NCBI GenBank assembly: GCA_965207375.1
Contig: OZ242274.1
Location: 1,408,001 to 1,472,000, forward strand
DNA: 64,000 bases
Reading direction: 5' to 3'
Origin: Nitrosopumilaceae archaeon
Lineage (GTDB): Archaea > Thermoproteota > Nitrososphaeria > Nitrososphaerales > Nitrosopumilaceae
In this document: positions 34,257 through 62,296 of the stretch, one piece after another
Numbering within the stretch: the first letter of the stretch is position 1
How the letters are laid out: every line of letters starts with the position of its first letter
Notes under the pieces: model-generated
Databases searched by the model: none
The model's input: the letters and a program-made list of their open reading frames with translations, nothing else
Told to the model about the DNA's origin: nothing
Made by a program: the position numbers and the translations under genes

Positions 34257-35620
34257 TAGACAGTAGCGCAACCCTGCCTAAAATCCTTCAAAATCATACG
34301 AAATGACCCATATTAGACTAATCCATCAGGATTTTTTACATTACGTGCTTTTTGATCATGATATCACTTGTATGCTTGTGCCTAAACTAGCTGATGGAAC
34401 TAAAATTACTCATGCTCAAAACGATGCAAGATACATCGAACGTGGAAGACAGCTTGCATTGACCAACAAAAGTCTTGATGATCCACAAATACAAGAGGAG
34501 TTACGCAGTATGAACAAGAAAAAAAACGGACATCCGTATGAATATCCTGATTCGTTGTTTGTTGCCCTAGCACTAGTACGTTCAATGTGCGGATTGTCAT
34601 ATCGTGTACTTGAAGGATTAGCAGCAGAATCCCTTGGTAAAGACAACGTTCCACATTTTACAAAAATACGCACACGCATTCTAGCACTAGATACAGACAA
34701 GCTTGGAAAGATGACATTCAAAAAAAATGGTAATAACAAGGTTACAATCAGCATACTACCTGACGGTACAGGCCTAGAGCCGTGTACCCGTGGAGAATTT
34801 ATACGTGCCAAACACAAAGTTAGGCGTGGTTTTATCAGATTTACAACAATAATTGATCACGATACCATGAAGATACTTGCCTATGAGATTACAGATGAGC
34901 GTACCGGAGAAGCAATGGGACTAGAGAATATGATTGAAACCGCACTAGAAAATCTGGGTGTACAGGTACAAAAACAAGATACAGAAAAACTAGATACAAA
35001 ACAGGAGAATGTAAAGAGTGGTACAAAAAAACAAGACACAAAACAGGATAAAGAATATGATTCAACAGATACAATTCAGACTCGCTTGGAAGAAAAGGAC
35101 AAAGACAATAATCCAAATATCAGACTGTTAGGTGATGGACTGTATTCAAAATGCAAGTTCTTTGATATGTGTGATTTATTTGGAATCGAGCTGGTATCAC
35201 CAGTAGCTTCTAACTCTGCTGCAAAGGTACGTGGTAGAAAGGGAGGCAGGGCGCGCAAAAAGGCTGTACTAGAACAGCTTGGAGGAGGAGTGCATGCCAA
35301 TACATTTGCAACATTAACTGATGCACAACGTGCAGAAAATATGAAAAAGTGGAAAAAACAGGTAGGATACGGCAGAAGATGGCTAGTTGAGATAATGTTT
35401 TCAGCATTCAAGCGAATGTTTGGAAGCGCTGTAATGGCAGTAAAGATGGAAAACATAGTTCGGGAGATTTCATTTAAGGTATTTGCATACAATAAAATGC
35501 TAGACATAGCGCAGGAGGCCATGGCTAGAGCATAATGACTGTAAACTTTACAGTACAAGTCAATCAGACTTGGATCAAGTGAGTTAGATTTGGACCAAGT
35601 CGTAGTTGCGCTACTGTCTA
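34257..35620 (+). mobile_element. IS5-family insertion sequence
   Basis: 16-bp TIR TAGACAGTAGCGCAAC; 8-bp TSD GTAGGTTC (34249-34256, 35621-35628). Confidence 0.9.
34303..35535 (+). CDS. IS5-family transposase, paralog of 14616..15806
   Basis: PDGTG, GDGLY, YGRRWLVEIMFSAFKR. Confidence 0.9.
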   Translation: MTHIRLIHQDFLHYVLFDHDITCMLVPKLADGTKITHAQNDARYIERGRQLALTNKSLDDPQIQEELRSMNKKKNGHPYEYPDSLFVALALVRSMCGLSYRVLEGLAAESLGKDNVPHFTKIRTRILALDTDKLGKMTFKKNGNNKVTISILPDGTGLEPCTRGEFIRAKHKVRRGFIRFTTIIDHDTMKILAYEITDERTGEAMGLENMIETALENLGVQVQKQDTEKLDTKQENVKSGTKKQDTKQDKEYDSTDTIQTRLEEKDKDNNPNIRLLGDGLYSKCKFFDMCDLFGIELVSPVASNSAAKVRGRKGGRARKKAVLEQLGGGVHANTFATLTDAQRAENMKKWKKQVGYGRRWLVEIMFSAFKRMFGSAVMAVKMENIVREISFKVFAYNKMLDIAQEAMARA

Positions 35621-36063: not shown

Positions 36064-36135
36064 AGGCCTGTTGTTTAGTAGAAGAACGATTGACTGAAAA
36101 TCAATAGGTCACGGGTTCGAATCCCGTCAGGTCCA
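36064..36135 (+). tRNA. tRNA-Phe(GAA)-like gene with degenerate D loop
   Basis: ATTGA-CTGAAAA-TCAAT anticodon arm, ACGGG-TTCGAAT-CCCGT T arm, GGCCTG/CAGGTC acceptor; D loop lacks GG; AT-rich TATA-like upstream. Confidence 0.7.
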
Positions 36136-36577
36136 CGCCTTACCTAATGTCGTACAAATTCCTTGATCAAGGATTTTCTAAAATAACCAAAAATCGAGTA
36201 AATTTAACATCTAGCCTTAATTTTTTGGTACAAACTCAGGTCGTAAATTTTTCAGCCACAAAATTTTCACATATGTTCAAAAACTACATAGAATCAGAGG
36301 TGACCTGAATATTTGCTTGTTTGCATTGGTACTTGGAGAGTGGAATCTTGTAGAACTTGGATTACTGCCATCATCTAATTTACTTGATCGTGGCACATAA
36401 GATTACGTATATTCCCGCCGTGTACTTAAATAATTGATTAAATCAATATGGATATGGAAAATGAAAAACCAAAAGAAATCAAAAAAGCACCAGAACGACC
36501 GTTTTATGGTAGTCAGGAACAACCCACACGTACCGCTCCAGATGGTTCATCTAGCCAAGGACCCATCAAAGGTAAAC

Positions 36578-37769: not shown

Positions 37770-38381
37770 CTAGAAATCAGCAGTCCTGATATTTTTGATT
37801 TGTAACGGAGTTACCTTCTGATGATTTCGAATTTCTTCAAAATCTCCATCAAAAGTCCAAAATTCGTCACATTCCATCTCTTTTGCTAACAACACGTGTA
37901 ATGCGTCATATGATGCAAGAGATTTGTATGATGTGGTAGGTATTCTGCCCTTATTACATTTCTTGCAATAATCATGCGTTTTGATTGTCCCCCTTACCGA
38001 ATCCAAAATTAATTGTGCATCTGTTAGCAGTTGATTCATGTCAATGCTTTTCTTGACCTGAAAGATTATTTTGTTTTCCATGCGTAATAACTCCTCTAGT
38101 ATTTTTTTATACATAGACGAGGATTCTTTAATGACATGGTCTACTCTGTTAGTGACATCTGGAATTGCCAACAGTTTGGATTTGTCCTGCCCTACTCTAT
38201 TTTTAAGTACAGCCATGATCTCGATCAGGACAAGAGCAGAAACTACACCCTCTATATGGCCCTCTTTTATTTTGTCAAATACCTGATCCGCTAGTTTTGT
38301 TTGTGTTCGATTGCTTTCAAACCCAGTAATTTTTGCAAGAAGTATATTGGAATCCAAATATACTCTGATCAATCTAATCAC
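37770..38381 (-). CDS. PIN-domain (VapC-like) toxin
   Basis: VYLDSNIL, LIEI, YDALHV, TFDGDF. Confidence 0.85.
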   Translation of the reverse strand: MIRLIRVYLDSNILLAKITGFESNRTQTKLADQVFDKIKEGHIEGVVSALVLIEIMAVLKNRVGQDKSKLLAIPDVTNRVDHVIKESSSMYKKILEELLRMENKIIFQVKKSIDMNQLLTDAQLILDSVRGTIKTHDYCKKCNKGRIPTTSYKSLASYDALHVLLAKEMECDEFWTFDGDFEEIRNHQKVTPLQIKNIRTADF

Positions 38382-40752: not shown

Positions 40753-41895
40753 AATTTGATTCTACACTGCCAATTTACACATACGTTGTATTGTAATCAT
40801 CATGTATTGTTTATGTGTAGAATGGACCATTAATGCTTGCAAGTGTCAGATTTTCAACATTTTAGTTAACTGATTTTATAAATGTAAATTCACATGATAA
40901 GTATATCTGAGATGCATCTAGAACTGTAAATATGGGGATCATAAACCTGACTTTTTCACTAATTTTTTCCTAAGAATTAAATACTAATTGTTTGAAGACT
41001 TGTTATGACAGAAACATCATATTCGGAAGATTTTGGTGAATATCAAAAAGAAGAAGATGAGATTTCCTGTACATACAATTCCGCAGAAGAAGCAGAAGAC
41101 GCCGTATTGAAAGAAATACTTGATGAATAAAACAGAGTGAGAATATGGCAGACATCTCATTGTCCAAACTTTTTAAACAACAGATTCATGACGACTGAAT
41201 GAGTAAGATAAATAGAATAAGAATAACTCGTTCTTTCAAACGGGTCGAGCGTATGATTTTGGATCTAGAAAGGCATGGTTTTGATATCGAACAAATGAAT
41301 ATCAGAATAAAGATAATATACAACATACGAGTTATTTTCAAAGTCATGCCACAACAAGACAAAATAATAGTTAAAAAAATCTTATTTCAATGATCGGTTT
41401 AATGATAATCTACATAAACAACTGATTTGATTTCTTTTTGCAAATATGATTAAGTGATTTCGAGATGTAGTATGAAACCCTATCTTCTTCAGCCCATCAT
41501 TCACACATTGTTTTAACTCCTCTTCATCGGAATCAAGTATGGTTCTAAGGACTATAGTAATTAGTTGTATTTTCTGATATGGGTCATCAACTTCATCTAC
41601 CAGTGCTTGCAATGCCTGAGAGATGATTCGTAATTAGAAAACCACGCCTAACAAGAGCAAAAATCTGTGCCCAGATCTAATTACGAATCACGTCTCTGTA
41701 TTTCCAATAACTGTTCATCTGTCATATCATTAGTATATCTAAATAATATAAAAGGAGTAACGTAGATATTTTTCTATGAATAATTTGTAAAAACTTTCTA
41801 TCGTCTATTGTAGTTGTTTGTATCTTGTTGTTTGCTTTTTGTCACAAGGAATTGAATTTTTATTTGTGAATTTAATTTTTTGACAAGATTATTGT

Positions 41896-42143
41896 GGTAT
41901 CATCATATTGATACCTTTACCCTATTATGGTAGTTTAGTATCATTATATTGATACTTTTTTTTGTATATTACTGACTAAACGGGCTAACTTGTTTTGTGC
42001 AGTATAGTAGTGAAAACAAAAAACCAGGAATAAAATTCCAAAACAAATAGCAAATGCATGCGAAAAAACGTACACCCCCTAGATTTTCAACTACCCTACC
42101 AAAATCAACAAATTCAAAAATAAAGTCACGTCATATTGATACC
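41896..42143. promoter_or_regulatory. Repeated palindromic sites RGTATC-N8-GATACY
   Basis: 41896-41915, 41937-41956, half-site CATATTGATACC at 42132-42143. Confidence 0.55.
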
Positions 42144-42205
42144 TTTTTCACCACAAAAATCTTCTGAAATTTTTCAAATCAATTTTAAAAATTACACTAA
42201 ACCAC

Positions 42206-42268
42206 ATGGGCGATGATGAGACCACACATCTGAATCAGTATGATTGATTCCATTCATTCTGAGCCCAT
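42206..42268 (+). ncRNA. Box C/D guide RNA unit 1
   Basis: ATGGGC-g-ATGATGA-gaccacacat-CTGA-atcagt-ATGATTGA-ttccattcatt-CTGA-GCCCAT. Confidence 0.85.
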
Positions 42269-42344
42269 CATAACCTACTTTCACAGAAACATCTTCTGCT
42301 ATTAAATTTGTCCTTTCAGATTTGTAAAAATTCCACTAAACAAC

Positions 42345-42409
42345 ATGGGCTATGATGAAGAACAGTCGTTCTGAAACCAGATGATTCACGATTTGCAATC
42401 TGAGCCCAT
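42345..42409 (+). ncRNA. Box C/D guide RNA unit 2
   Basis: ATGGGC-t-ATGATGA-agaacagtcgtt-CTGA-aaccag-ATGATTC-acgatttgcaat-CTGA-GCCCAT. Confidence 0.85.
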
Positions 42410-42484
42410 CACACCCTTTTCACAAAGAATCATTTTCTCTATTAAATCTGCCGAACAAAACTTGTAAAAATTTCACTAAACAAC

Positions 42485-42555
42485 ATGGGCTATGATGAAG
42501 TCAATCAGCTGAACAATCTACAAATGTAGAGACCCGCGGCTGAATCTGAGCCCAT
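42485..42555 (+). ncRNA. Box C/D guide RNA unit 3
   Basis: ATGATGA-agtcaatcag-CTGA...ATGTAGA-gacccgcggctgaat-CTGA inside ATGGGC/GCCCAT. Confidence 0.85.
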
Positions 42556-42631
42556 CATAACTTGTCTTCACAGTAACATTTTCTATTATTAAATTTGTCC
42601 TTTTAGACTTGTAAAAATTTCACTAAACCAC

Positions 42632-42696
42632 ATGGGCGATGATGAGACCACACAAACTGACTTCTGTATGAAGAATCATCCCTGGTCTGAGCCCAT
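42632..42696 (+). ncRNA. Box C/D guide RNA unit 4
   Basis: ATGATGA-gaccacacaaa-CTGA-cttctgt-ATGAAGA-atcatccctggt-CTGA inside ATGGGC/GCCCAT. Confidence 0.85.
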
Positions 42697-42772
42697 CATA
42701 ACCTCATTTTCACAGAACTATTTCTGCTATAAACTTTCCATAATGAAAAACAATTACAATATTTAATGTAAA

Positions 42773-42863
42773 GTGAGCGGCGATGATGAACGCGTGCAAA
42801 TCATATCCGATGAGAGACGGAAATGTTGATGCCTGACTCGCCGAGAGTCCCTGAGCCGCACAC
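42773..42863 (+). ncRNA. Box C/D RNA unit 5 (long guides, different stem)
   Basis: GCGGC-g-ATGATGA-17nt-CCGA...ATGTTGA-21nt-CTGA-GCCGC. Confidence 0.8.
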
Positions 42864-42919
42864 TTCTCTCAACTTTCATTTCTTTCTTTTTAAACTTTGT
42901 AAAAATTACACTAAACCAC

Positions 42920-42984
42920 ATGGGCAATGATGAGACCACACAAACTGACTTCTGTATGAAGAATCATCCCTGGTCTGAGCCCAT
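42920..42984 (+). ncRNA. Box C/D guide RNA unit 6 (core identical to unit 4)
   Basis: Same boxes and guides as 42632-42696. Confidence 0.85.
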
Positions 42985-43109
42985 CATAACTTGTCTTCAC
43001 AGTAACATTTTCTATATCTAAACCTGCCGCAACCACAGGTACAATTTTCGTTCTTTGCAAGAACAAGCCCAGTGAGGGTTAATTACAAGTCAAACATCGC
43101 AAGCCGATT

Positions 43110-43646
43110 TTGGCTAAATTTACAAAACTTACGCTCATGACTACAAAACGAAACCAAAAAATCACCATTGATGGTAAGGAATACCTAAAACGAGACGTAT
43201 GTAGATACGTCAAGGATTTCTCTGGAGAGATAGATGATCTCATCCTAACACCATGTGGTACAGGTCAGTCAGCCATAAAAAACTACGACGATGAAGTCGT
43301 GGCAACTGTTGACACAGACTGCATCCGAACTTTACTCGGTGATACCATACCGATTGAAGGTTTGGAGAGTATTGATGACAGACGTCAAAGGAAGGAATTT
43401 ACAAAAACGACACAAGTTGCTACAGGGAATTGGCACTCATGCATAGCAGATGAGAAAGGTAATCTACCTGATTGTGACGTGTGTCAATCATATATTCCAG
43501 AAAGCACATGGATAAGCCTACATAACATGTTGGCCGAATCTCTGGAAGATTCTATGATTGTTACCTTGCGCGACGAGTATGTCAAAGGACTAGATGATAG
43601 TCTACGATTCATTATAGAGTCCGAAGCTGACCGACGAGGATTGTAA
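43110..43646 (+). CDS. Hypothetical protein (likely start 43138); N-terminus homologous to 48646..49905
   Basis: KITIDGKEY...VC versus KINVDGKQY...VC. Confidence 0.7.
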   Translation: MAKFTKLTLMTTKRNQKITIDGKEYLKRDVCRYVKDFSGEIDDLILTPCGTGQSAIKNYDDEVVATVDTDCIRTLLGDTIPIEGLESIDDRRQRKEFTKTTQVATGNWHSCIADEKGNLPDCDVCQSYIPESTWISLHNMLAESLEDSMIVTLRDEYVKGLDDSLRFIIESEADRRGL

Positions 43647-43720
43647 AATCCTCCCCCTTTTTTATTTTCAATAATGATTATTTCTTTTTCAAATCAATTT
43701 TCAAAATTTTACTAAACCAT

Positions 43721-43784
43721 ATGGGTGATGATGAACCGGCAGTCGATTTGATCTCGATGATGAAAAGCCAGAGTCTGAGCCCAT
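43721..43784 (+). ncRNA. Box C/D guide RNA unit 7
   Basis: ATGGGT-g-ATGATGA-accggcagtcgat-TTGA-tctcg-ATGATGA-aaagccagagt-CTGA-GCCCAT; same flanks as units 1-4 and 6. Confidence 0.85.
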
Positions 43785-43872
43785 CATAACCTCATTTACA
43801 GAAACATTTTCTGCTATTAAATTTGTCCCTTTATTTTTCAAGAGACTGGTCAAAGCCGGAAATATTTTGCTC

Positions 43873-43962
43873 ATGAAAAAAGAAAAACAGGAAAAAACAC
43901 CATATTTTCCAAGAATAAAACGAGAATTCGAAGATGACCCAGAAGACCGGGAAATCTGGTGA
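43873..43962 (+). CDS. 29-aa peptide MKKEKQ...DREIW
   Basis: Manual translation; followed by a T-run. Confidence 0.35.
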   Translation: MKKEKQEKTPYFPRIKREFEDDPEDREIW

Positions 43963-43974
43963 ATCACCCCCTTT

Positions 43975-44049
43975 TTTGTGACCTGACAAGTCTTTTCAAA
44001 TCTCACAGTATCCCGTATGGGGCTGACAGGCAGGTGAGTGTGGAAAAGA
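43975..44049 (+). ncRNA. Unrecognised structured RNA motif, copy A
   Basis: GTGACCTGACAA-TCTTTTC-AAAT-CTCAC...CTGACAGGCAG-GTGAG-TGTG-GAAAAGA. Confidence 0.75.
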
Positions 44050-44064
44050 TACAACGTGATTCAA

Positions 44065-44229
44065 ATGTACAAAAACAAAGAACTCGTAGCATCTGAGCTT
44101 GTTGAATCTAACATTCTCAGATCAGACTCTGGTTTCCTCCAGGGAATAATCACCCATGAGGAACTCACAGAGATTGACAAGTTGATGGATGAAGCATTCA
44201 TCGACTTTGACATTTTGTGTCGGGAATAA
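44065..44229 (+). CDS. Small acidic protein
   Basis: 54 aa, directly after motif copy A. Confidence 0.55.
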   Translation: MYKNKELVASELVESNILRSDSGFLQGIITHEELTEIDKLMDEAFIDFDILCRE

Positions 44230-44250
44230 TCCGATACACAAACCCATTTT

Positions 44251-44324
44251 TTTGTGACCTGACAAACTTTTCAAACCGGCATTATCTGATGTATCAGACT
44301 GACAGGCAGGCCGGTGTGGAAAAG
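44251..44324 (+). ncRNA. Structured RNA motif, copy B
   Basis: Helix CCGGC/GCCGG replaces CTCAC/GTGAG. Confidence 0.75.
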
Positions 44325-44333
44325 CAAGCAACC

Positions 44334-44744
44334 ATGAAAAAAAGACAAAAAATCAAAATCCCCATCATGGATGCCCTAAAAAAGACAAAAGAACGACTAT
44401 TCAAAATACAAAACGCTGTATTTTGGGGTATCGTTGTAGTCGGTACAGGAATGAGCATAACCGATTCAATGGTCGAAAAACCTATTTTTGTTGACGGCAT
44501 AGCCTTTATTATTGCTGGCTTCGTAGGTTTGATAATGTCTTGGATAACTGCTGATGTTGCAAAAAGTCTTACCGAAAAAATCGAAAAAGTCGGTCAAGAA
44601 ACCAAAGAGGAAATTCGCAAGGTAGGTAAAGAAACCAAAGAGGAAATTCGCAAGGTAGGTACCGCAGTTGAAAAACACATGGAAGTATCTATAAAACAAA
44701 CTGAGATCCTGGAGAAGATCTTGCACAAACTTCCAGACAAGTAG
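44334..44744 (+). CDS. Two-TM plus coiled-coil protein, paralog 1
   Basis: Two TMs; 11-aa repeats EIRKVGKETKE. Confidence 0.8.
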   Translation: MKKRQKIKIPIMDALKKTKERLFKIQNAVFWGIVVVGTGMSITDSMVEKPIFVDGIAFIIAGFVGLIMSWITADVAKSLTEKIEKVGQETKEEIRKVGKETKEEIRKVGTAVEKHMEVSIKQTEILEKILHKLPDK

Positions 44745-44766
44745 GGCATTCCAAAATCCCGTATTT

Positions 44767-44853
44767 TTTGTGACCTGACAAACTTTTCAAATCCGTTAAT
44801 ATCGAGTATAGCGCAAGCTGTATTTGGCTGACAGGCAGAACGGTGTGGAAAAG
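44767..44853 (+). ncRNA. Structured RNA motif, copy C
   Basis: CCGTT/AACGG helix; GCAA-capped hairpin with G-U pairs. Confidence 0.75.
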
Positions 44854-45108
44854 CAAGCAACCATGAAAAAGATTCAAAGAATCCGAAACTCCATCATGGA
44901 TGCCCTAAAAGAAGCAAAAGACAGACTGTTCAGAAAACAAAACACACTATTTTGGGCCATCGTTATAACTGGTCTAGGAATGAGCATCGTGGGTTTAATT
45001 TTCGATGTGCGATTCCTTGTTGACCAGCTAAGCGAAATATGATTCAGATTCTTTGTCACAGTAGATTTTGGCCTATTTTGCCAACATTTCGCTTATGTTT
45101 GACTTGTA

Positions 45109-46269
45109 TCAATCTCTAATTGCTTCAGCTATTTCTTTACATACAAATATTTTACTTTTGTATTTGTTACTTATCTCATCTAGTATTTGTACGTCAATTA
45201 ATCTCTGTACAGCATTTTTTGCCGATGGGTAAGTTATGCCTAAATAATCTGCGGCTTTTGGAATTGTTATGAATGGATTTCCTAACAAATAATCTATCAA
45301 CAAGACCGCACTTCCACTAACACGTTGTTTTTTCAAAGTTTGTTTGTATTTTTTTTGAAGAGTTAACAACCTTTGAATATTTTCAATTGCCTCATCTGCC
45401 GTTACCGTTATCGCATGTAAGAAAAACATCAACCATTCTTTCCATTTACTTTGTTGACTAATGGCCAACAATCCTGCATAATACCTGTCCAAGTTTTTTT
45501 CAAAATATGCACTCAAATACAATAAGGGTTGAGAAAGCAAACCTCTTTCTGTTAAAAGTAAAGGAATCAACACTCTTCCAATTCTTCCATTTCCATCTAG
45601 AAAAGGATGTATAGCTTCAAATTGATAGTGTAGAATTGCACATTGTAGAACTACTGAAAGATTTTCTGGTGGTTTTTGTAGAAATTCTTCTACTTGTTCT
45701 AATAATGATACAACATATTCAGGTGGTGGGGGTGTATATACGGAATTTTCAAGGGTATCACCATATCTGACTATCCAATTTTGAACTGTTCTAAACGATC
45801 CTGGATTTTTATCTCCACCTCTGACCCCCATCATCAATATTTTGTGAGATTCTCTTATCATTTCTAAATCTATTTTTCTTCCATCTTTGATTATCTCCTT
45901 GATTTTTTCTTGTAACACTTTCACATAGTTTCTTACCTCTTTCAACCGTAATCTTTCTTCGTCTTCTTGACGAAAACTTCCTACTACCTCATATTGTAAT
46001 AGATCAGTCATTGATGCTAATGTTCCCTCGATTTTGGAACTTAATACGGCTTCCCGAGTAAGATAGGGTCTAATCAACACATGTGGATTTGGAAGTAAAT
46101 CACCTCTTCCTTTTAATTCCGCCAATTTTCGTTCTGCATGAACAAGAGACATTACTAAATCATCGTCATATTGTATTTCTGGTGGTATTTTATTAGGAAT
46201 AAAGGTCTCATATCCTTTCGTATTTTTTATTATTTTGCCGTTAGGATTGGTAAAGTCACTTTTATTCAT
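45109..46269 (-). CDS. Fic-family protein
   Basis: SSKIEG and HPFLDGNGRIGR motifs; C-terminal HTH. Confidence 0.95.
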   Translation of the reverse strand: MNKSDFTNPNGKIIKNTKGYETFIPNKIPPEIQYDDDLVMSLVHAERKLAELKGRGDLLPNPHVLIRPYLTREAVLSSKIEGTLASMTDLLQYEVVGSFRQEDEERLRLKEVRNYVKVLQEKIKEIIKDGRKIDLEMIRESHKILMMGVRGGDKNPGSFRTVQNWIVRYGDTLENSVYTPPPPEYVVSLLEQVEEFLQKPPENLSVVLQCAILHYQFEAIHPFLDGNGRIGRVLIPLLLTERGLLSQPLLYLSAYFEKNLDRYYAGLLAISQQSKWKEWLMFFLHAITVTADEAIENIQRLLTLQKKYKQTLKKQRVSGSAVLLIDYLLGNPFITIPKAADYLGITYPSAKNAVQRLIDVQILDEISNKYKSKIFVCKEIAEAIRD

Positions 46270-46469
46270 TCACTGCACCGTTTTCTGGTCATTATAGTTT
46301 CTTTAATGAAATATTTACAAATTAAACATATTGCCATTTTTCTTTAATCTAAGATGTTTTACTATTAAAACTTGTTGGCTAAACAGCTAAGCGAAATGTG
46401 GGCAAAATAGGCCAAAATCTACCCCAAAAATGCAAACAGATCAATAGAGGCGGCTCCAGATGATTTTCA

Positions 46470-47606
46470 GTGTCCAAACAAAAAACCAAACAGAGCCGTG
46501 AACTATTAAACAATCCACGATTATATCAAGATGCCGCATCTGGTGCCAAAAACATGCTTGCATGTACTACTTTGTCAGTCAAGGGCAATACGATATATGG
46601 AGTTGATGATCTCAGTACCGGAATGTTGAGGGCTACCATTATGGATTCCTCTGTAGGAGGATGTGCAAATGCGGTAAAACAAAAAAACAGCAATACGCCA
46701 TCAGACAGATGGTATGCATCTGCAATCAAGGGGATATCAGAGGAAACAGTACAGGACGTTTTCCAATTACAGATAGCAAGACAGGTTAAAATTCTCAAAA
46801 AAATGGGAAAGATTCCAAAGAAGGGGCTTACAGTTGCAATGGACCTACACCTCATATGCCGTTATGACAGGACACATGGGGAGGAGTTGACCCGTTCCAA
46901 ATACAAAAACGGCACGACATACTTTGAGCGTTACATGACGGTTCACTGTGTGGATGATACAATGAGAGTCGTTCTAGCTGCAATACATCTCAAAATGCTT
47001 GATTCCGTGCCTAAATCGGTGAATTTTCTGCTCAAAACACTGTCGGATTTGGGGGTAAAAGTTCGTCTGGCATTATGTGATCGTGAGTTTTTCTCAGTGG
47101 ATACAATGCAAATGCTGATTCAAAACGACGTATCCTTTTTGATACCTTGCAGAAATACACCAAATGTAAAATCTGCACTAGACGAGTATAGTCGTAAAAA
47201 ACGTGATGTAACATCAGAGTGCACCCTACAAAACGACTGTCATTCTGTACCGTATACAATGATAATAGAAAGAAGAAAAGGGTCAAAGGATACTGATGTT
47301 GCCGAGGAAAAATACATTGGCTTTGCAACTAACTGTAATACTGTAGACGTTACAGAATATGCAAGTAGGTGGGGGATAGAATCAGGATACGGCAAGATAG
47401 AGGAATGCAGGGCCAAGACACGAATCAAGGATAATGTATCAAGAATGCTGTGTTTTTATTATTCACTGATACTGTACAATGAGTGGATAATTATCAGGGC
47501 TATTCTTTGTGACGATACAGCAAGTCAGAGTATTATGACCATGCTAGTTTTCAAAGTACAAATGGATTTTGAGTTGATGCGTCAGTTCAAGCCGCCGCCA
47601 GGGTAG
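46470..47606 (+). CDS. ISH3-family transposase
   Basis: AMDLH, CDREFF, YASRWGIESGY. Confidence 0.9.
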   Translation: MSKQKTKQSRELLNNPRLYQDAASGAKNMLACTTLSVKGNTIYGVDDLSTGMLRATIMDSSVGGCANAVKQKNSNTPSDRWYASAIKGISEETVQDVFQLQIARQVKILKKMGKIPKKGLTVAMDLHLICRYDRTHGEELTRSKYKNGTTYFERYMTVHCVDDTMRVVLAAIHLKMLDSVPKSVNFLLKTLSDLGVKVRLALCDREFFSVDTMQMLIQNDVSFLIPCRNTPNVKSALDEYSRKKRDVTSECTLQNDCHSVPYTMIIERRKGSKDTDVAEEKYIGFATNCNTVDVTEYASRWGIESGYGKIEECRAKTRIKDNVSRMLCFYYSLILYNEWIIIRAILCDDTASQSIMTMLVFKVQMDFELMRQFKPPPG

Positions 47607-47893
47607 GATTTGGGCTACATTTCGCTTAGCTGTTGACGGCATAGCCTTTATTATTGCTGGTGTCGTAGGACTGATAATGTCTTGGATGACTACCGATGTT
47701 GCAAAAAACCTCACCGATGAGATCCGCAAGGTTGGTCAAGAAACCAAAGAAACCAAAGAGGAAATCCGCAAAGTAGGTACCACAGTCGAAAAACACATGG
47801 AAGTAACTGTGAAACAGACAGAAAAACTAACCGAGATCCTGGAGAAGATCTTGCACAAACTTCCAGACAAGTAGGGCATCAAATCCCGTATTT

Positions 47894-47980
47894 TTTGTGA
47901 CCTGACAAACTTTTCAAATCCGTTAATATCAAGTATAGCGTAAGCTGTACCCGGCTGACAGGCAGAACGGTGTGGAAAAG
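47894..47980 (+). ncRNA. Structured RNA motif, copy D
   Basis: As copy C, GTAA loop. Confidence 0.75.
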
Positions 47981-47989
47981 CAAACAACC

Positions 47990-48379
47990 ATGAAAAAGAG
48001 TCAAAAAATCAGAAACTCCGTCATGGATGCCCTAAAAAAGACAAAAGAACGACTATTCAAAATACAAAACGCTGTATTTTGGGGTATCGTTGTAGTCGGT
48101 ACAGGAATGAGCATAACCGATTCAATGGTCGAAAAACCTATTTTTGTTGACGGCATAGCCTTTATTATTGCTGGCTTCGTAGGTTTGATAATGTCTTGGA
48201 TAACTGCCGATGTTGCAAAAAGTCTTACCGAAAAAATCGAAAAAGTCGGTCAAGAAACCAAAGAGGAAATCCGCAAAGTAGGTACCACAGTCGAAAAACA
48301 CATGGAAGTAACTGTGAAACAGACAGAAAAACTAACCGAGATCCTGGAGAAGATCTTGCACAAACTTCCAGACAAGTAG
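47990..48379 (+). CDS. Two-TM coiled-coil paralog 3
   Basis: Near-identical to 44334..44744. Confidence 0.8.
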   Translation: MKKSQKIRNSVMDALKKTKERLFKIQNAVFWGIVVVGTGMSITDSMVEKPIFVDGIAFIIAGFVGLIMSWITADVAKSLTEKIEKVGQETKEEIRKVGTTVEKHMEVTVKQTEKLTEILEKILHKLPDK

Positions 48380-48400
48380 GGCATTCCAAATCCCGTATTT

Positions 48401-48487
48401 TTTGTGACCTGACAAACTTTTCAAATCCGTTAATATCGAGTATAGCGTAAGCTGTATTTGGCTGACAGGCAGAACGGTGTGGAAAAG
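48401..48487 (+). ncRNA. Structured RNA motif, copy E
   Basis: As copy C; not directly followed by an ATG. Confidence 0.75.
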
Positions 48488-48645
48488 AAATCCGCAATAG
48501 CGGTGCATGAAATTCTACATGTATTATTTGGACGCAAGTTCAATCCCAGATTTTTTGACAAATAATATTCGGATGTGGGCATAGAATTACCACATCGCAA
48601 CGGCGACAGTCGTAAAGAACTCAAACAACAAAGGAGGTTGATAAA

Positions 48646-49905
48646 ATGAGTGTAACAAACAAACCAACAAAAATCAACGTTGATGGAAAACAATATCCGT
48701 TAGCGTTTGTATGTAAAAAAATCAGAACAACCCTAAAACTCTCATCTGCCGTGTATAACCGCGGTAACACATTTTTGTGTGATGGAGATATGGTGGCTGT
48801 TCTGTCTGGAAATCACATAACATCTGTGATAACCGGCAAGAAACTAGACCTTTCACAAAGCCATGTGAAAAAAACACATGAACTAATTGATAACTGCAAA
48901 AAATCAATTGGTGATTTCACAGACTCTGCGGACTTTTATCAAAGAGAACCTGAAGGCTTTGAACCAATCAGCGGCAAAGCATTTGCAATTGGTTGGAAAA
49001 AAGACGGCTTTTACGAGTCGTTACATTTTGCAGATGCAGACGGCACAATGTTAAATGCTATACTAGACAAAGACACAATCGACACTCTAGTAAAACCATA
49101 CAACAGACCTGTAATAGAGCGTAGACATGTAAACTACACACCACGCTCAGAAGAGGTAGCGTTTGCACTAGCAGACATGCAAGGTTCTGACATACTAGTC
49201 CGTACGGAAAACCAATTCCATGGAAAAGTTACAGAACCCATATTTGTCGAGGAGCAACCATCAGAACAATACCAGTTTCTTTTATCTGATGATGGTCAAA
49301 TCTTGACACAAAAGTACACACCGATAAAGGAATGTGACTGCATATCTGTATCATCAATGAGTGATGAGTTCAGAGAAGCATTTGCTGATATTATCGACGA
49401 ATCACAAATGGGTGCAAAAACAGACTATACAACAGAGGCCCAAATATGTGAAGAAATAATAGACATAGAAGATGTGGTACCTTCACACTTTGTAGCAGAC
49501 AAAACAGCAAGAGATGTCAAAAGACAAAGCCAGAGTATACACACAGGTGAGAGAACACACAAGCCAAGAAAACATGACAATAGGACATACAATCCTGCTG
49601 ACATTTTGTCTCATGCCAAAACACTAGACAGCAAATCTTTGATTGTTATCTACAAACCAATGATATCACAATATCATGACCACGGTGAGACTGAACGACA
49701 CTGCAACATCTGTGTCTTTGAAGATGTATCAGAAAATCTTGAAGATACAATGGTGTCTCTTCGTGGCATGGAAGCATCTCAACTAACTGTATTTATCAAA
49801 ACAGTTGAAACCGCAATGGACCAACTACAGGTACCAACACACAAGGAGCCTGTGGAATTATCCATCGCAAAAAGCCTGCTAAAAGCAAAGTCTTCACATT
49901 GCTAA
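48646..49905 (+). CDS. Hypothetical protein
   Basis: 419 aa; AGGAGGT upstream. Confidence 0.75.
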   Translation: MSVTNKPTKINVDGKQYPLAFVCKKIRTTLKLSSAVYNRGNTFLCDGDMVAVLSGNHITSVITGKKLDLSQSHVKKTHELIDNCKKSIGDFTDSADFYQREPEGFEPISGKAFAIGWKKDGFYESLHFADADGTMLNAILDKDTIDTLVKPYNRPVIERRHVNYTPRSEEVAFALADMQGSDILVRTENQFHGKVTEPIFVEEQPSEQYQFLLSDDGQILTQKYTPIKECDCISVSSMSDEFREAFADIIDESQMGAKTDYTTEAQICEEIIDIEDVVPSHFVADKTARDVKRQSQSIHTGERTHKPRKHDNRTYNPADILSHAKTLDSKSLIVIYKPMISQYHDHGETERHCNICVFEDVSENLEDTMVSLRGMEASQLTVFIKTVETAMDQLQVPTHKEPVELSIAKSLLKAKSSHC

Positions 49906-50267
49906 GCGCCCAAAAGGTAGCATCGATTTTAGATGCCCTTGTACTTGCCGGAAACGTTGAAACATCACAGCAATTTTTCAAATGCTGTGGTCCCAACTGG
50001 CAAAAGGTTTACAGTCTTTTGTCCCCGGAGGCACAAAAATCACTCAATCCAGATGTATCACATCAAATAAAGATAGACCCAAAAATTGCAGTAAAGGTGT
50101 TCAATGAACTAGCATCTGCACAGCAATATGATACTATCATCATGATGTGCAATTCTAGGATTGGAAACATTGGACGTATCATGAACTTTTGTTCACCTGA
50201 TGCTGTTCGTGTAATCAGCCGTGTCAGACAGACATGGCAAAAAAATGTACAGATTACCTGTACATAG
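49899..50267 (+). CDS. Hypothetical protein
   Basis: 122 aa, overlapping previous stop. Confidence 0.6.
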   Translation: MLSAQKVASILDALVLAGNVETSQQFFKCCGPNWQKVYSLLSPEAQKSLNPDVSHQIKIDPKIAVKVFNELASAQQYDTIIMMCNSRIGNIGRIMNFCSPDAVRVISRVRQTWQKNVQITCT

Positions 50268-50273
50268 GGAAAA

Positions 50274-50396
50274 TCCCACTGATGAGTTTGCCATAGCGAC
50301 ACCGCATGAAGCAAACGCTGGAGTATTCCAGTTGACTGACTCCATCCCGCAGATACGGGGGTTAGTCGAAACATCCTAGTACCAGGATGTCTGGGA
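50274..50396 (+). ncRNA. Type I hammerhead ribozyme with multibranched stem II
   Basis: TCCCA-CTGATGA-G...C-GAAA-CATCCT-agtacc-AGGATG-TC-TGGGA; predicted cut after C50391. Confidence 0.8.
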
Positions 50397-50511
50397 AAAA
50401 GAAACACAAATCCTTCCATCCCAGACCTGATGATACCTATACCATCTAATGGTATCTGTAATATCAGGTCAATGAGGGATTTACACAACACAAACAACGG
50501 AGGTTGATATA

Positions 50512-50763
50512 ATGAGTTATACAATCACAAAATACCAAGGAAAATTTGAAACAGCAGAAAACATACCAAAGACAGGCAGACTAGTTACTGCAGAATCTTT
50601 GTTCAAAGAAAAGTCCGCACTCAGAAATGTTGCAGCAGTATTCATACAGCAACAAGAAACAGTATATCTTGTCTCACTACGTGAGATGGTACCAGAAGAC
50701 TCGAAAGTCATCGTAGATGATCAACAAAACATTTGTGCCATACCAGCAGTTGCCGGGGGGTAA
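50512..50763 (+). CDS. Small protein with ubiquitin/SAMP-like C-terminus
   Basis: 83 aa ending IPAVAGG; GGAGG upstream. Confidence 0.65.
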   Translation: MSYTITKYQGKFETAENIPKTGRLVTAESLFKEKSALRNVAAVFIQQQETVYLVSLREMVPEDSKVIVDDQQNICAIPAVAGG

Positions 50764-50813
50764 AACCCCTTGGAAACTCGCAGAGTATCCAATACTGATT
50801 CAAAAGGCAGACA

Positions 50814-50948
50814 ATGCTTTCAGCAACCGGCGCAATAACACGCATCGATTCTGGACGATTTTCTGTAGGTTCGGGAGTAATAGTTGACATCCATGGGTGC
50901 AACTGTCCCGGATACACAAAATGTAGAATCTGCTCACACTTGTTGTGA
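50814..50948 (+). CDS. Tiny SWIM-type Zn-finger peptide
   Basis: Manual translation ...GCNCPGYTKCRICSHLL. Confidence 0.4.
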   Translation: MLSATGAITRIDSGRFSVGSGVIVDIHGCNCPGYTKCRICSHLL

Positions 50949-51002
50949 GAAATCTCTTGACACAATACGACACCAACATAATCTAGGAGGAACAACAAGA
51001 AA

Positions 51003-51209
51003 ATGTCCAAAAAAGAACTAGAAAAAATTGTAGAGTTGTACCGCAACTATAACATCGAAAAGATGCACAAACAAAAAATCATAAAGAGTTACACAAATAC
51101 TATCATGGCCATCCTTGAGGTGTGCTCAGAAGAGACCATATCCAAAATCAATGACTGTCTTGAGCAGGAAGAAAAAATACAACCATCACCAATTGGTATT
51201 GTATCATGA
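51003..51209 (+). CDS. Hypothetical protein
   Basis: 68 aa; AGGAGG upstream. Confidence 0.55.
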   Translation: MSKKELEKIVELYRNYNIEKMHKQKIIKSYTNTIMAILEVCSEETISKINDCLEQEEKIQPSPIGIVS

Positions 51210-51781
51210 GTGTAGTATCAACATACAGAAAAGACAATCAAATTTTGGAAATATTTGTAGATGAAGATCCTACAAGTCCAAGAGAATGGGATAATCTAGG
51301 TACAATTATCGCTTATCATCCAGACTATATCCTTGGAGATAAACAAATGGATCTACAGACTGCACAGAATGAATGTAAAAAACATATCAAAACTGCATAT
51401 GTTGCATTGCCATTATACATGCTAGAACATAGCGGTATATGGTTGTCTACTGAAACATTTGTTTGTGACCTCCAGGGCTGGGATACTAGTGCTGTCGGCA
51501 TGATATACTGTACAAAATCAGAGGTAAAGAAAATGCTGCAAGTGGACACCCTAAAATCATCAGACAAAAAAAGAGTAGAACAAATCCTAAAAGAGGAAGT
51601 CGAGGAGTGTGGAGAATATCTAAACGGTGATGTATATGGATACTCTCTAAGTACGGTATCTAAATGCAACCAAGGAATGGAACATCTACATCTTGTCGAC
51701 TCTTGTGGTGGATACTATGGTCAAGAGGGCATAGACTCTATCCTTGAACAAAACGGCGCACAAGATTGGGAGAAGATATAA
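51206..51781 (+). CDS. Mobile-element hypothetical protein
   Basis: DPTSPREWDNLG, LPLYMLEHSG, DSCGGYYG resemble phage/ICE hypotheticals. Confidence 0.7.
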   Translation: MSVVSTYRKDNQILEIFVDEDPTSPREWDNLGTIIAYHPDYILGDKQMDLQTAQNECKKHIKTAYVALPLYMLEHSGIWLSTETFVCDLQGWDTSAVGMIYCTKSEVKKMLQVDTLKSSDKKRVEQILKEEVEECGEYLNGDVYGYSLSTVSKCNQGMEHLHLVDSCGGYYGQEGIDSILEQNGAQDWEKI

Positions 51782-51962
51782 TCATGAGCACCGAATCTCG
51801 GCTCCTTTCACATTCCAAAAAGGAATTGGTAAATCTGCTCATCATGGCAAGTGCCAGGATTTTTACACTACAAAATGAAGTGAATGGGTACCAAACCAAT
51901 TGTAACTGCAAACCAAACACCGGTGACAGATTTGCAGACATTGATAGGGCGTGGAATAAACC

Positions 51963-52175
51963 ATGATTGACCAATATACAATGTATGTAGATCCAAACTA
52001 TTCGTATCTTAAAGTACCTAGAAAGGAACTAATCAAGATGGATGTACTTTCAAAAACCAGCAGTAGGTCATTCAGACGCGGGGCGTGGGTTCTACTAAGA
52101 GAGGGTGCTGACATGAACAGATTCATGAAGCAAAAAGGTCAGGTAGAAATCATAAAAGAGTTCACACTAGTGTGA
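51963..52175 (+). CDS. Hypothetical protein
   Basis: 70 aa in a packed operon. Confidence 0.55.
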   Translation: MIDQYTMYVDPNYSYLKVPRKELIKMDVLSKTSSRSFRRGAWVLLREGADMNRFMKQKGQVEIIKEFTLV

Positions 52176-52312
52176 GGGGGTAAAACCATGGAACAACAAA
52201 TTAAAGAGAAATGTGTATCATGTGGGGATATAGCAACAATCAATATGTTTGGGAGTCACCTGTGTGACACATGTGTTGATTTTGTCAAAATTACCAAAAA
52301 ACCTACAGAAAC

Positions 52313-52615
52313 ATGAATCAACAAACTAGACTGGAAAAACTTGCAAAGTGTCTTGATACTATATTGACAACACCAAAAATCAATGGTACAGTAGACGAGT
52401 TTTACGGATATGAAGAGACACATTCTGGACTCTGGTTAAGTGCTGATGACGGCAACAAAATAGATGACATGTCAGCATTTGATTATCATCTGATGGACTC
52501 TGACGAAAAACAATACGTAATGGGTGTACATAAAAAAATACACGAAATACTTTGTCAACAAAAAGCACATACAGAATATCATGATCCGGCAACGATTATG
52601 ATATATCTGGACTAG
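52313..52615 (+). CDS. Hypothetical protein, paralog of 52817..53296
   Basis: FDY...GVHKK...EYHDPAT. Confidence 0.65.
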   Translation: MNQQTRLEKLAKCLDTILTTPKINGTVDEFYGYEETHSGLWLSADDGNKIDDMSAFDYHLMDSDEKQYVMGVHKKIHEILCQQKAHTEYHDPATIMIYLD

Positions 52616-52623
52616 GTAAAACC

Positions 52624-52866
52624 ATGAAAAACGAACCTACACAAAACACTCAATATGTCAACATGCCAAAGCCACACTCGCTACTAGTATTATCTTGGGA
52701 AGATATTGTATCACAAGCAGATGACATGGACATGAAAATCACAAGAGAGCAATGTATTGAGGTGTTTAACAAAATTATATCATCTAATATGGACTCTATA
52801 ATGGATTCCTTTTGGCATGATATCAGATTTTGGTTGGACACCATACATGACGAAAACAAATTATAA
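52624..52866 (+). CDS. Hypothetical protein
   Basis: 80 aa acidic. Confidence 0.55.
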   Translation: MKNEPTQNTQYVNMPKPHSLLVLSWEDIVSQADDMDMKITREQCIEVFNKIISSNMDSIMDSFWHDIRFWLDTIHDENKL

Positions 52867-53296
52867 AATCACGGAGTTGATGAAATTGAACGGAAAATCA
52901 AAATCCAAACTGGTTGAACCAGAAAGGAATTTAGCAAAACAACGATTGGAAAATCTGAAACAGGATCTAGAAGAGTTTCTAGAGGACCCACAAATTGGCA
53001 TGACCATAGATGAGTGGAGCGGCAGAGCCGAAACATATTATGGTATTGTAATGTCAGGTGAGGGAGGCAATCGGGTTAATGGCATTCCTGGCTTTGACTA
53101 TTATGAGGAATGTGATTATCTGGCAGCAGAGGCTGTAACAGAATTTGGCGGTTCTACACCAGAGACAACATATGACTTTGGAGTCCACAAAAAGCTCAAA
53201 GAGTTTCTTCAAAAAAGAGGAGCAAGTGCAGAATGGTATGATGCAGGGACTGTTCATGTATACTTTGAAGAACCCCGTCAAGCACCAAAAAGATGA
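52817..53296 (+). CDS. Hypothetical protein
   Basis: FDYY...GVHKK...EWYDAGT. Confidence 0.65.
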   Translation: MISDFGWTPYMTKTNYKITELMKLNGKSKSKLVEPERNLAKQRLENLKQDLEEFLEDPQIGMTIDEWSGRAETYYGIVMSGEGGNRVNGIPGFDYYEECDYLAAEAVTEFGGSTPETTYDFGVHKKLKEFLQKRGASAEWYDAGTVHVYFEEPRQAPKR

Positions 53297-53388
53297 ATTG
53301 TAAAACATTCGTAGATAATCTACGATACAATATGTCATGTGAAACATTACTGATATCGGTAGACAATACAAAAAGGAGGTACGATATA

Positions 53389-53649
53389 ATGAACCAAGAA
53401 ATACAAGTGATTAAACCAAAGGTAACATTTGATTTTGATGTACCAGAATCTTACAAAACGGTAAAGGCCTTTACTTTACTGTCTGAAAAAGAATTGCAGA
53501 CATTTAGAGAAAAGGGTGCTGCTCTGATAATATCAGTAGATGGTAAATTCATACCGGTACTGTTACACTCAGATGTACCAACACAAGCAACAGCAGTTCG
53601 TGACACACAAGGAAACCTGTGGGGTATTCCTGCAGTAGCAGGTGGTTAA
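53389..53649 (+). CDS. Second small protein with ubiquitin/SAMP-like C-terminus
   Basis: AGGAGGT then ATG 53389; 86 aa ending IPAVAGG. Confidence 0.65.
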   Translation: MNQEIQVIKPKVTFDFDVPESYKTVKAFTLLSEKELQTFREKGAALIISVDGKFIPVLLHSDVPTQATAVRDTQGNLWGIPAVAGG

Positions 53650-53650
53650 A

Positions 53651-54753: not shown

Positions 54754-54831
54754 CAACAAAACATGATTGATTGTCTCAAACTCTAAAAACAATATCATTG
54801 TGGTTAACACCCCGATGATGGAGGTGGTACA

Positions 54832-55347: not shown

Positions 55348-55374
55348 AATCTACAACCAAAGGAGGTAGATATA

Positions 55375-55893: not shown

Positions 55894-55897
55894 TACC

Positions 55898-57916: not shown

Positions 57917-57937
57917 TTTTCCAAAAAGGAGGAGAAA

Positions 57938-58815: not shown

Positions 58816-58866
58816 ATTCAGGTAAACTATGGAATACAGAATTGTCCTAGATGGGATCACGATATA

Positions 58867-59202: not shown

Positions 59203-59211
59203 GGAGGTATC

Positions 59212-62206: not shown

Positions 62207-62296
62207 GACTATCCTCTCTGATAAACCTAGACTGATTCAATCCCCGTTAATACCACGAGTAATTCGACACTGAAAAGTTATACTAGGAGGTAGAAA

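Follow-up and report, generated by a model that had tools for sequence, protein, structure and literature searches.

An array of seven box C/D units

The DNA analysed here, hereafter called the window, is a stretch of 64,000 nucleotides (nt) from a Nitrosopumilaceae archaeon (GenBank assembly GCA_965207375.1, contig OZ242274.1, positions 1,408,001 to 1,472,000 of the forward strand), and carries at window positions 42206–43784 an array of seven units with the canonical architecture of archaeal box C/D small RNAs (sRNAs), all on the plus strand. The units and spacers are given below, with bit scores from a covariance model (R1) built from 12 units of this array and of a homologous array in the same-genus genome G249.

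42206–42268, plus strand: u1, box C/D sRNA unit (R1, 68.6 bits)
42345–42409, plus strand: u2, box C/D sRNA unit (R1, 67.6 bits)
42485–42555, plus strand: u3, box C/D sRNA unit of 71 nt, in which the second guide is long and an additional CTGA occurs internally (R1, 31 bits)
42632–42696, plus strand: u4, box C/D sRNA unit (R1, 74.5 bits)
42773–42863, plus strand: u5, divergent C/D unit of 91 nt with the stem GTGAGCGGC/GCCGCACAC
42920–42984, plus strand: u6, duplicate of u4 (94-nt repeat, 98% identical; R1, 72.2 bits)
43721–43784, plus strand: u7, box C/D sRNA unit; its stem, ATGGGT, closes with a G-U pair, and its box D' is TTGA (R1, 54.7 bits)
42269–42631, plus strand: inter-unit spacers from u1 to u4, conserved, with an A/T-rich TATA-like box (TTGTAAAAATT) about 20 nt ahead of each next unit

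The units range in size from 63 to 91 nt and follow one another at a start-to-start distance of 139–147 nt (288 nt across u5). Box C (ATGATGA) and box D (CTGA) are present in 7/7 units. Box D' (CTGA, or TTGA in u7) lies 10–13 nt past box C in six of the seven, and a C'-like ATGAWKR box lies 11–12 nt before box D in six (15 nt in u3); the internal D' and C' boxes of u5 are not clearly recognisable. The terminal stem ATGGG(C/T)...GCCCAT is common to six units, which thereby form one family with conserved flanks and differing guides, u5 being of another type. The core of u6, from box C to box D, is an exact copy of that of u4, with a single base difference just before box C, and the first guide of these two units recurs in u1 except for its last bases. 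An alignment of the units shows that the sequences before and after each of them are conserved, including, in the spacers between u1 and u4, a segment of the form CATCATAACC...TTCACAG...TATTAAATTTGTC after each unit; these conserved boxes and segments are possible promoters or processing signals. No open reading frame (ORF) of note in the window list overlaps any unit.

The terminal stem was present in the minimum-energy fold of 5/5 units folded. In the 12-unit alignment of the window and G249 arrays, all six pairs of the stem are 100% paired, and two of them have changed in a compensatory manner between the arrays. Further compensatory stem variants, such as GTGAGGGC/GCCCTCAC and TAGAGGGC/GCCCTCTA, were found among 44 units from 14 genomes, the homologous units elsewhere in the family having stems of a GGGC type with compensatory changes. 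Thus, by every criterion that can be tested here at the level of sequence, the seven units are genuine archaeal box C/D sRNAs. An earlier interpretation of the same DNA made without database searches (the sequence-only reading) had already described seven C/D units of this architecture, six with the common stem, as well as the identical cores of u4 and u6 and the first guide that u1 has in common with them; the boxes, flanks, folds and stem covariation bear this description out, apart from the last bases of the guide in u1.

Searches with RNA families gave the same picture. An E-value-based Rfam scan of positions 41000–45000 returned 65 matches, nearly all of them to C/D-box small nucleolar RNA (snoRNA) families on the strand of the units, and the three best matches of the Rfam family snoPyro_CD in the entire genome were u7, u4, and u6. 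A crude box-plus-stem scan of the 4.3-Mb genome gave 11 candidates, six of which are array units. When contigs of four sequencing runs were compared with the locus, a near-identical locus was found in three runs, and a diverged copy in the fourth, which belongs to another study and includes a low-depth contig (5.3) that skips u1.

Homologous arrays in related genomes

A BLAST search against 40 relatives identified a homologous array in G249, which consists of 11 tandem units with a period of 141–174 nt, has the stem GAGGGC/GCCCTC and boxes identical to those of the window, and contains nine distinct D' guides and eight distinct D guides between spacers that are 0.78 identical. The surroundings are likewise conserved: in tblastn, a region of G249 (contig C2, ~84–117.5 kb) was collinear with positions 44–63 kb of the window at 23–50% amino-acid identity, and the order of ATPase gene, ParM-like gene, array, and operon is retained, with the ParM-like gene directly upstream of the array and the ATPase gene further upstream.

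A covariance-model search for homologous arrays with different guides, which the sequence-only reading had proposed, identified G249, G401, and G070. Among same-genus genomes, the model gave 15 matches in G249, four in G401, one in G109, and one weak match in G202; model and pattern scans detected no array in the latter two. Over 150 genomes of the order, another multi-unit carrier was G070, a member of a different genus, in which five units are placed among small ORFs. A strict pattern for the ATGGGY stem, ATGGGYNATGATGA...CTGARCCCAT, had no match in 400 other genomes of the class or in IMG/VR. Its single match in GTDB genome contigs lies inside a bacterial ORF and was taken as chance, and three matches in JGI metagenomes were read as eukaryotic intronic snoRNAs. 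A relaxed pattern, GGGCNATGATGA N30-60 CTGAGCCC, was found in 13 of 400 other genomes of the family, with 1–11 units each, in three genera (2/4 genomes of g1, 2/3 of g13, and 9/99 of g3), and its reversed control gave no match in any listed genome. The 14 matches of the relaxed pattern in IMG/VR, none of which exceeded 22 bits with R1, were treated as chance.

In the 3-kb loci around the matches, ParM-like homologues flank the units in G257, G098, G239, and G138, those of G257, G098, and G239 being single units beside that gene. SNase homologues flank units in G138 and G070, and other window genes do so in G147, G070, and beside a solo unit of G249. The patchy distribution (13/400), together with the same neighbouring element genes where these were checked, marks the units as typical of one accessory-element family and not as an invariant core chromosomal cluster, an outcome by which the sequence-only reading would have had to be abandoned. 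Decayed copies of u2, with part of u3, occur in the host genome (G000) at C1:139889–140179 and C1:345798–345868, where box D reads CTAA and the stem is disrupted; these probably represent what is left of other or older copies of the element.

Guides and their predicted targets

The guides are the variable part of the units. Their identity is 0.37–0.45, as against 0.77–0.78 for the inter-unit spacers (0.37–0.42 and 0.77, respectively, in the window), and whole guides have moved from one unit to another and from one of the two guide positions (D' and D) to the other, so that the guide shuffling suspected in the sequence-only reading extends to an exchange of guides as modules.

Archaeal fibrillarin is guided by an established rule, by which it 2'-O-methylates the target nucleotide that pairs with the fifth base of the guide, counted upstream from box D or D'. 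Targets were sought with 77 distinct guides, which were extracted automatically from 44 distinct units in 14 genomes. A perfect complement of at least 10 nt in the ribosomal RNA (rRNA) or transfer RNA (tRNA) of G000 was found for 15 of the 77 guides, compared with an average of 1.25 and a maximum of 5 over 200 shuffles, and with none for reversed guides; for complements of at least 9 nt, the count was 29/77 against a shuffled mean of 6.28. An initial outcome of no rRNA target, obtained by ranking full-length ungapped pairings, was a scoring artefact, and scans for contiguous runs found the targets. The predicted sites, assigned by the above rule (+5 rule) and numbered as in E. coli by alignment to rrsH and rrlH of strain MG1655, are as follows.

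u1 D guide, (G)ATTCCATTCATT: 23S rRNA 2074–2083 (2074–2084 with its relatives), predicted A2077, equal to E. coli A1969
D' guides in G249, G401, G138, and G357: 23S rRNA 2074–2084, predicted E. coli A1969, in domain IV
u2 D guide: 23S rRNA 866–875, 10 Watson-Crick pairs, predicted C868, about E. coli 750 (alignment uncertain)
Units a3 and a5 of G249: GGGAUAACAGGCU in 23S rRNA, predicted E. coli A2451, in the peptidyl-transferase centre (PTC)
Units g3 and g5 of G070: 23S rRNA helix 69, predicted E. coli 1918, also in domain IV
Guides in G249, G138, G257, and G070: 16S rRNA helix 31, predicted E. coli 966–970
Guides in G070, G147, and G283: 16S rRNA decoding centre in the same register, predicted E. 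coli C1407
u5 first guide (9 Watson-Crick pairs), G249 solo unit, and G357 units: anticodon arm of tRNA-Ala(UGC)
Guides in G249, G138, and G239: anticodon arm of tRNA-Asp, predicted position 36

For the window itself, the clear predicted targets are thus 23S A2077, 23S near C868, and the anticodon arm of tRNA-Ala. The D guide of u4 also forms 10 Watson-Crick pairs with the 3' end of a copy of tRNA-Arg(TCT) on contig C4, although this assignment is uncertain. The sequence-only reading had envisaged a programmable repertoire of guides; contrary to an open repertoire of this kind, the same few rRNA and tRNA sites recur across elements of three genera, the same guide being found in the same register in different genera. 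The guide pattern for A1969 occurs in 5 of 61 genomes searched, and within C/D units only in the arrays of G000, G249, and G401; no box C accompanies the matches outside the arrays (G024, G119, and contig C4 of G000), which were set aside as fortuitous. Across the host genome, sequences exactly complementary to the guides are no more frequent than expected by chance and form no clusters of DNA targets.

Units a7, a8, and a10 of G249 (locus L015, C2:117735–118268) have the helix-31 guide in common, and their 84-nt spacers differ by about 2 bases. Their D' guides differ at three adjacent bases only (CAA, ACA, and CCC), centred on the position that would select the methylated nucleotide; no target was found for these D' guides.

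Host genome and methylation machinery

The host genome G000 (4.30 Mb in 4 contigs, 99.95% complete) is archaeal and encodes an archaeal AmoA. Its genes for Nop5 (C1:979628–980293) and fibrillarin are adjacent at C1:978643–980293, and that for L7Ae is at C1:794086, none of them being in the window. A six-frame Pfam search of the whole genome for the Nop domain detected the host Nop5 only, ~470 kb from the array, and no Nop family was found among the 50 window ORFs covered by the Pfam scans, in which sequence profiles were used that a very divergent Nop fold could escape. Since the element carries no Nop protein, the host L7Ae–Nop5–fibrillarin machinery is the likely effector, in line with the first of the two effectors that had been considered from the letters of the sequence together with the absence of a neighbouring Nop-domain gene.

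Few other C/D sRNAs were found in the host by the crude box-plus-stem scan and the covariance model. One is a chromosomal C/D sRNA at C1:1297932–1298000 on the minus strand, directly after a conserved protein gene, which has orthologues in G249, G109, and G401 and for which no clean rRNA target was found. Three to four further core sRNA types are present in other families of the order.

The element around the array

Pfam scans and comparison with the relatives assigned the following features around the array.

4664–6604, plus strand: TadC/T2SSF-like membrane protein (Pfam T2SSF)
6579–9455, plus strand: HerA/TrwB/AAA_10-type ATPase (DUF87/HerA, AAA_10, TrwB_AAD_bind), 33% identical to the protein of G249 C2:140.8–142.6 kb
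14616–15806, minus strand: DDE transposase (Pfam)
19839–20618: HD protein (Pfam)
20644–21801: DDE transposase (Pfam)
26144–26815, plus strand: prepilin (type IV leader) peptidase (Peptidase_A24)
30549–31427, plus strand: ParM/actin-like gene, with a homologue directly beside C/D units in G249, G138, G257, G098, and G239
34303–35535: DDE transposase (Pfam)
37770–38381, minus strand: PIN-domain gene (Pfam)
41890–42146: palindrome-like motif (TATCATCATATTGATACC type) in 3 copies, just upstream of u1, specific to this element
43110–43646, plus strand: ORF of 178 amino acids between u6 and u7, with no significant Pfam family
43873–43962, plus strand: small ORF of 29 amino acids (MKKEKQEKTPYFPRIKREFEDDPEDREIW), conserved beside units in G249 and G070
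43966–44048 and 44242–44324, plus strand: two copies of an intergenic motif (TTTTTTGTGACCTGACAA ... CTGACAGGCAGG ... GTGTGGAAAAG)
44217–63999, plus strand: co-directional operon downstream of the array, collinear with G249 C2 ~84–117.5 kb
45109–46269, minus strand: Fic/DOC gene (Pfam), interrupting the operon
46470–47606: DDE transposase (Pfam), interrupting the operon
54265–54753: sub-threshold match to DUF1281_C, in the operon
57395–57916: sub-threshold match to an OB-fold, in the operon
58201–58815: SNase (Pfam), in the operon
59212–60042: ArdC_N (Pfam), in the operon

On the evidence of these genes, the array belongs to an integrated element of a plasmid-like, conjugation type and stands at the head of its co-directional operon, and from the same gene content we infer that the element is mobile by conjugation. 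Both the conjugative type of the element and the position of the array at the head of an early region had been surmised in the sequence-only reading; the former is borne out by the ATPase, TadC-like, peptidase, and ParM-like genes, with mobility itself being a matter of deduction, and the latter in the sense of a co-directional operon that is collinear in G249. The operon next to the array appears to resemble the leading region of a plasmid. The intergenic motif, composed of a T-run followed by GTGACCTGACAA, CTGACAGGCAGG, and GTGTGGAAAAG, is found ahead of ORFs in the window and ahead of every C/D unit in G070 (L055 and L056), possibly serving the early operon as a promoter or as a signal for processing. 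In G249 and G401, three palindromes of a different sequence, own to each element, occupy the same place as those upstream of u1 (L015, ~2740–2960, and L029, ~1100–1360), in G249 next to the ParM-like gene. The triple palindromes are possibly an operator or a partition centromere. The ORF between u6 and u7 had no homologue in the 80-kb region of G249 that was examined.

Several further observations were made in the surroundings of the array. The array region lies between the PIN-domain gene and the Fic/DOC gene, both on the opposite strand and both possible toxin genes of the element. Inside the ORF 44217–44744, at 44592–44661, there is a tandem repeat with a unit of 33 nt (2.1 copies, 97% identical). 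An 81-nt element with terminal inverted repeats at 41618–41698, resembling a miniature inverted-repeat transposable element, has ~18 copies (at least 70% of its length) on contig C1 and a ~40-fold excess depth in the sequencing contigs. A family of five tRNA-like genes, called tRNA-Phe(GAA) by ARAGORN, comprises one gene at window positions 36064–36136 (plus strand) and four others in G000 (C1:1341225, 1355322, 1407365, and 1974998). They have a common 3' half and upstream motif, differing anticodon stems, and an acceptor stem read as containing G3:U70, which we take to be an alanine identity element; an ordinary tRNA-Phe gene is located at C1:1921024. These five genes may be element cargo or old attachment sites. 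Finally, the size of G000 (4.3 Mb, against 1.2–2 Mb for most listed genomes of the family) and the four DDE transposase genes in the window alone suggest a massive expansion of mobile elements.

Proposed mechanism

Taken together, it is probable that the units are genuine C/D sRNA genes carried on an integrated plasmid-like element and that they guide methylation of host rRNA and tRNA. In this mechanism, the units would be transcribed from the TATA-like boxes ~20 nt upstream of them or be part of longer transcripts, and the terminal stem of 6–9 bp would join box C (RUGAUGA) and box D (CUGA) into a kink-turn (K-turn), with the internal D' and C' boxes providing a second guide position. The RNAs would then assemble with L7Ae, Nop5, and fibrillarin of the host, of which the element encodes no homologue, and base pairing of the ~12-nt guides with rRNA and tRNA of the host would lead fibrillarin to 2'-O-methylate the nucleotide predicted by the +5 rule. 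The recurrence of a small set of targets across the element family suggests that the element could serve as a portable package, adding ribose methylations at functional hot spots of the translation apparatus of its host.

Several points weigh against this interpretation. Only 4 of the 12 distinct guides of the window reach 10 Watson-Crick pairs, two of them with rRNA and two with the 3' termini of atypical tRNA predictions. In host rRNA and tRNA, no convincing target was found for the D' guides of u1, u4, and u6 or for any guide of u3 and u7, the matches of u3 being weak and G-U-rich ones to tRNA T-arms and those of u7 being weak ones to tRNA; and for the guides of the other genomes, the rRNA and tRNA of G000 served as substitute targets. 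All Rfam matches are under the gathering score, the best being sR5 with 30.2 bits (E-value, 2.7e-4; cut-off, 40). Because the archaeal C/D families of Rfam are lineage-specific, such scores exclude the named families but not the C/D class. As to the element, the only Pfam match to a tyrosine integrase (PF00589) in the whole genome is at C1:307448, far from the array, and neither attachment (att) sites nor ends of the element were found, the element appearing to exceed the window on both sides. Two of the predicted sites are also surprising: at A2451, the 2'-OH group is reported to be important for the formation of peptide bonds, and tRNA position 36 is, to our knowledge, not a site of ribose methylation. 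The +5 rule may therefore not hold exactly, or some of the pairings may serve another purpose.

As for the benefit, our leading guess is that the RNAs would protect or stabilise ribosomes and tRNAs when the element enters a new host. A 2'-O-methyl group blocks cleavage by RNases at the nucleotide that carries it, and the predicted targets are presumably sites at which antibiotics bind or at which ribotoxins and anticodon nucleases cut. A more specific proposal, which we put forward tentatively and regard as doubtful, is an RNA-guided protection module that places 2'-O-methyl groups where ribosome antibiotics bind or where such toxins cut. The decoding centre, helix 69, the PTC, helix 31, and anticodon loops would then be shielded, and the position at the head of a leading region would allow action upon cell entry, as immunity, as counter-defence, or as the antidote of an addiction system. 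A module of this kind, which would draw on the fibrillarin of the host, would be the guide-RNA counterpart of the rRNA methyltransferase genes that confer resistance from plasmids. The position resembling that in a leading region, together with targets at antibiotic and toxin sites, makes a protective role worth testing.

Alternative explanations

Among the alternatives to guided methylation by an element-borne array, the one that survives best, although we judge it distinctly unlikely, is that functional or decaying copies of host C/D sRNAs were captured and amplified as hitch-hikers in a repeat-rich island, without any role for the element. It would account for the solo unit elsewhere in G249, whose stem and flanks are those of the G249 array, for the decayed u2/u3-like copies on C1, for the several guides that have no target, and for u4 and u6 as plain duplicates. 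It is difficult to reconcile, however, with the retention of target sites and registers in three genera despite the divergence of flanks and stems, with a place beside the ParM-like gene and the operon head that is kept in elements whose proteins are only 23–50% identical, and with the confinement of the A1969 guide pattern, as far as C/D units are concerned, to three arrays among the 61 genomes searched.

It is very unlikely that the RNAs act as K-turn decoys that titrate L7Ae, Nop5, and fibrillarin of the host, or as chaperones of rRNA folding, instead of directing methylation. A decoy would fit the many guides without target and the number of well-formed K-turn units, which can be 7 to 11 or more per genome although the scans found few other C/D sRNAs there, but it has no need of conserved complementarity of 10–11 nt in a fixed register to functional sites of rRNA.

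Repeats that act at the level of DNA, such as iterons, a ParM-linked partition centromere, or operators, with an incidental likeness to C/D RNAs, have even less to recommend them. The array does stand beside a ParM-like gene in at least five other genomes, and its spacers are conserved; yet single units are found beside this gene in three of the genomes (G257, G098, and G239), and those of G070 are scattered between ORFs. Stem covariation and complementarity to rRNA and tRNA point to RNA, and a centromere or operator is more plausibly sought in the triple palindromes that precede the first unit.

A DNA-targeting array of the TIGR-Tas type with an effector that escaped recognition, a possibility touched on in the sequence-only reading and consistent with a mobile-element array whose tandem units each have a pair of variable guides, is close to refuted by the absence from the genome of any Nop domain beyond that of host Nop5, by the RUGAUGA/CUGA boxes, K-turn stems, unit sizes of 63–91 nt, and period of ~140 nt, and by guides that match rRNA and tRNA while their exact complements in the host genome stay at the level of chance.

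Relation to known systems and significance

Guide RNAs of the box C/D type are considered to be housekeeping genes on the chromosomes of archaea and eukaryotes. The units of the array agree with archaeal box C/D sRNAs in their C/D and C'/D' architecture, ~12-nt guides, terminal stem, and predicted K-turn, in predicted targets at hot spots of rRNA (helices 69 and 71, the surroundings of the PTC, and helix 44) and in tRNA anticodon arms, and in their presumed reliance on chromosomal Nop5, fibrillarin, and L7Ae. They differ from them in being the cargo of an element, in their tandem arrangement, which reaches 11 units and has homogenised flanks, in having a fixed place in the element, in occurring in 13/400 other genomes, and in having a mesophilic ammonia-oxidiser as host. 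According to the accessible text of Dennis et al. (PMC4644070), the predicted methylation hot spots of thermophilic archaea are helices 68, 69, and 71 (domain IV), the surroundings of the PTC, and helix 44, and a mesophile is noted there as having few C/D sRNAs. Clustered archaeal sRNA genes are mentioned, with reference to Tripp et al. 2017, in the portion of PMC12045711 available.

With TIGR-Tas systems, the array has in common the tandem dual-guide RNAs on a mobile element and an evolutionary link to C/D ribonucleoproteins through the Nop domain, but no tas gene is present here, and the complementarity is to RNA in place of the DNA targets of TIGR. In the portions consulted of two sources (PMC12045711 and 10.64898/2026.09.09.750476), TIGR units are typically of 36 nt (~54 nt in one stem-loop example), with spacers of 8–10 nt and boxes of a CCA/UG type, and the array is next to a tas gene. 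The polycistronic snoRNA clusters of plants and yeast are similar as tandem C/D RNA genes that are probably cut from longer transcripts, as far as described in the same portion of PMC12045711, and differ in being chromosomal and eukaryotic, not on a mobile element.

The thaumarchaeal integrative-conjugative elements of Krupovic et al. 2019 (PMC6563490, main text) resemble the present element in their VirB4/VirD4-type ATPase, TadC-like protein, and prepilin peptidase, and differ from it in that no integrase or att site was found here. A functional parallel may be seen in the rRNA methyltransferases borne on bacterial plasmids, with which a mobile element likewise alters methylation at functional rRNA sites (decoding centre and PTC). 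Those systems use a protein, act on one fixed site, and have a shown role in resistance, whereas the present one is apparently RNA-guided, directed to multiple sites, and dependent on the enzyme of the host. Bacterial examples include Erm, Cfr, ArmA, and NpmA, and the 2'-O-methyltransferases Tsr and AviRb.

In the literature on archaeal plasmids, integrative-conjugative elements, and viruses, we found no report of C/D sRNA cargo, with many subscription papers and supplements lying outside the search; small RNAs may have been noted on conjugative plasmids of Sulfolobus. The main text of PMC6563490 does not contain the terms snoRNA, sRNA, or 'box C', nor does the accessible text of PMC4644070 contain 'plasmid' or 'mobile'. 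What appears to be new is therefore the occurrence of methylation guides as the cargo of a mobile element, amplified into arrays with exchange of guide modules, and predicted to be directed to the anticodon arms of tRNAs as well as to the catalytic and decoding centres of the ribosome of the host. Provided that these RNAs are produced and used, a mobile element would rewrite the ribose-methylation pattern of the translation machinery of its host without an enzyme of its own, which would constitute a new accessory function. The array occupies an intermediate place between ordinary C/D sRNA genes, which are scattered, and the phage-borne TIGR arrays, and this bears on the origin of tandem guide arrays. 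If the proposed mechanism is true, the family would also offer a natural experiment on individual 2'-O-methylations of rRNA, in which the same species could be compared with and without a given guide.

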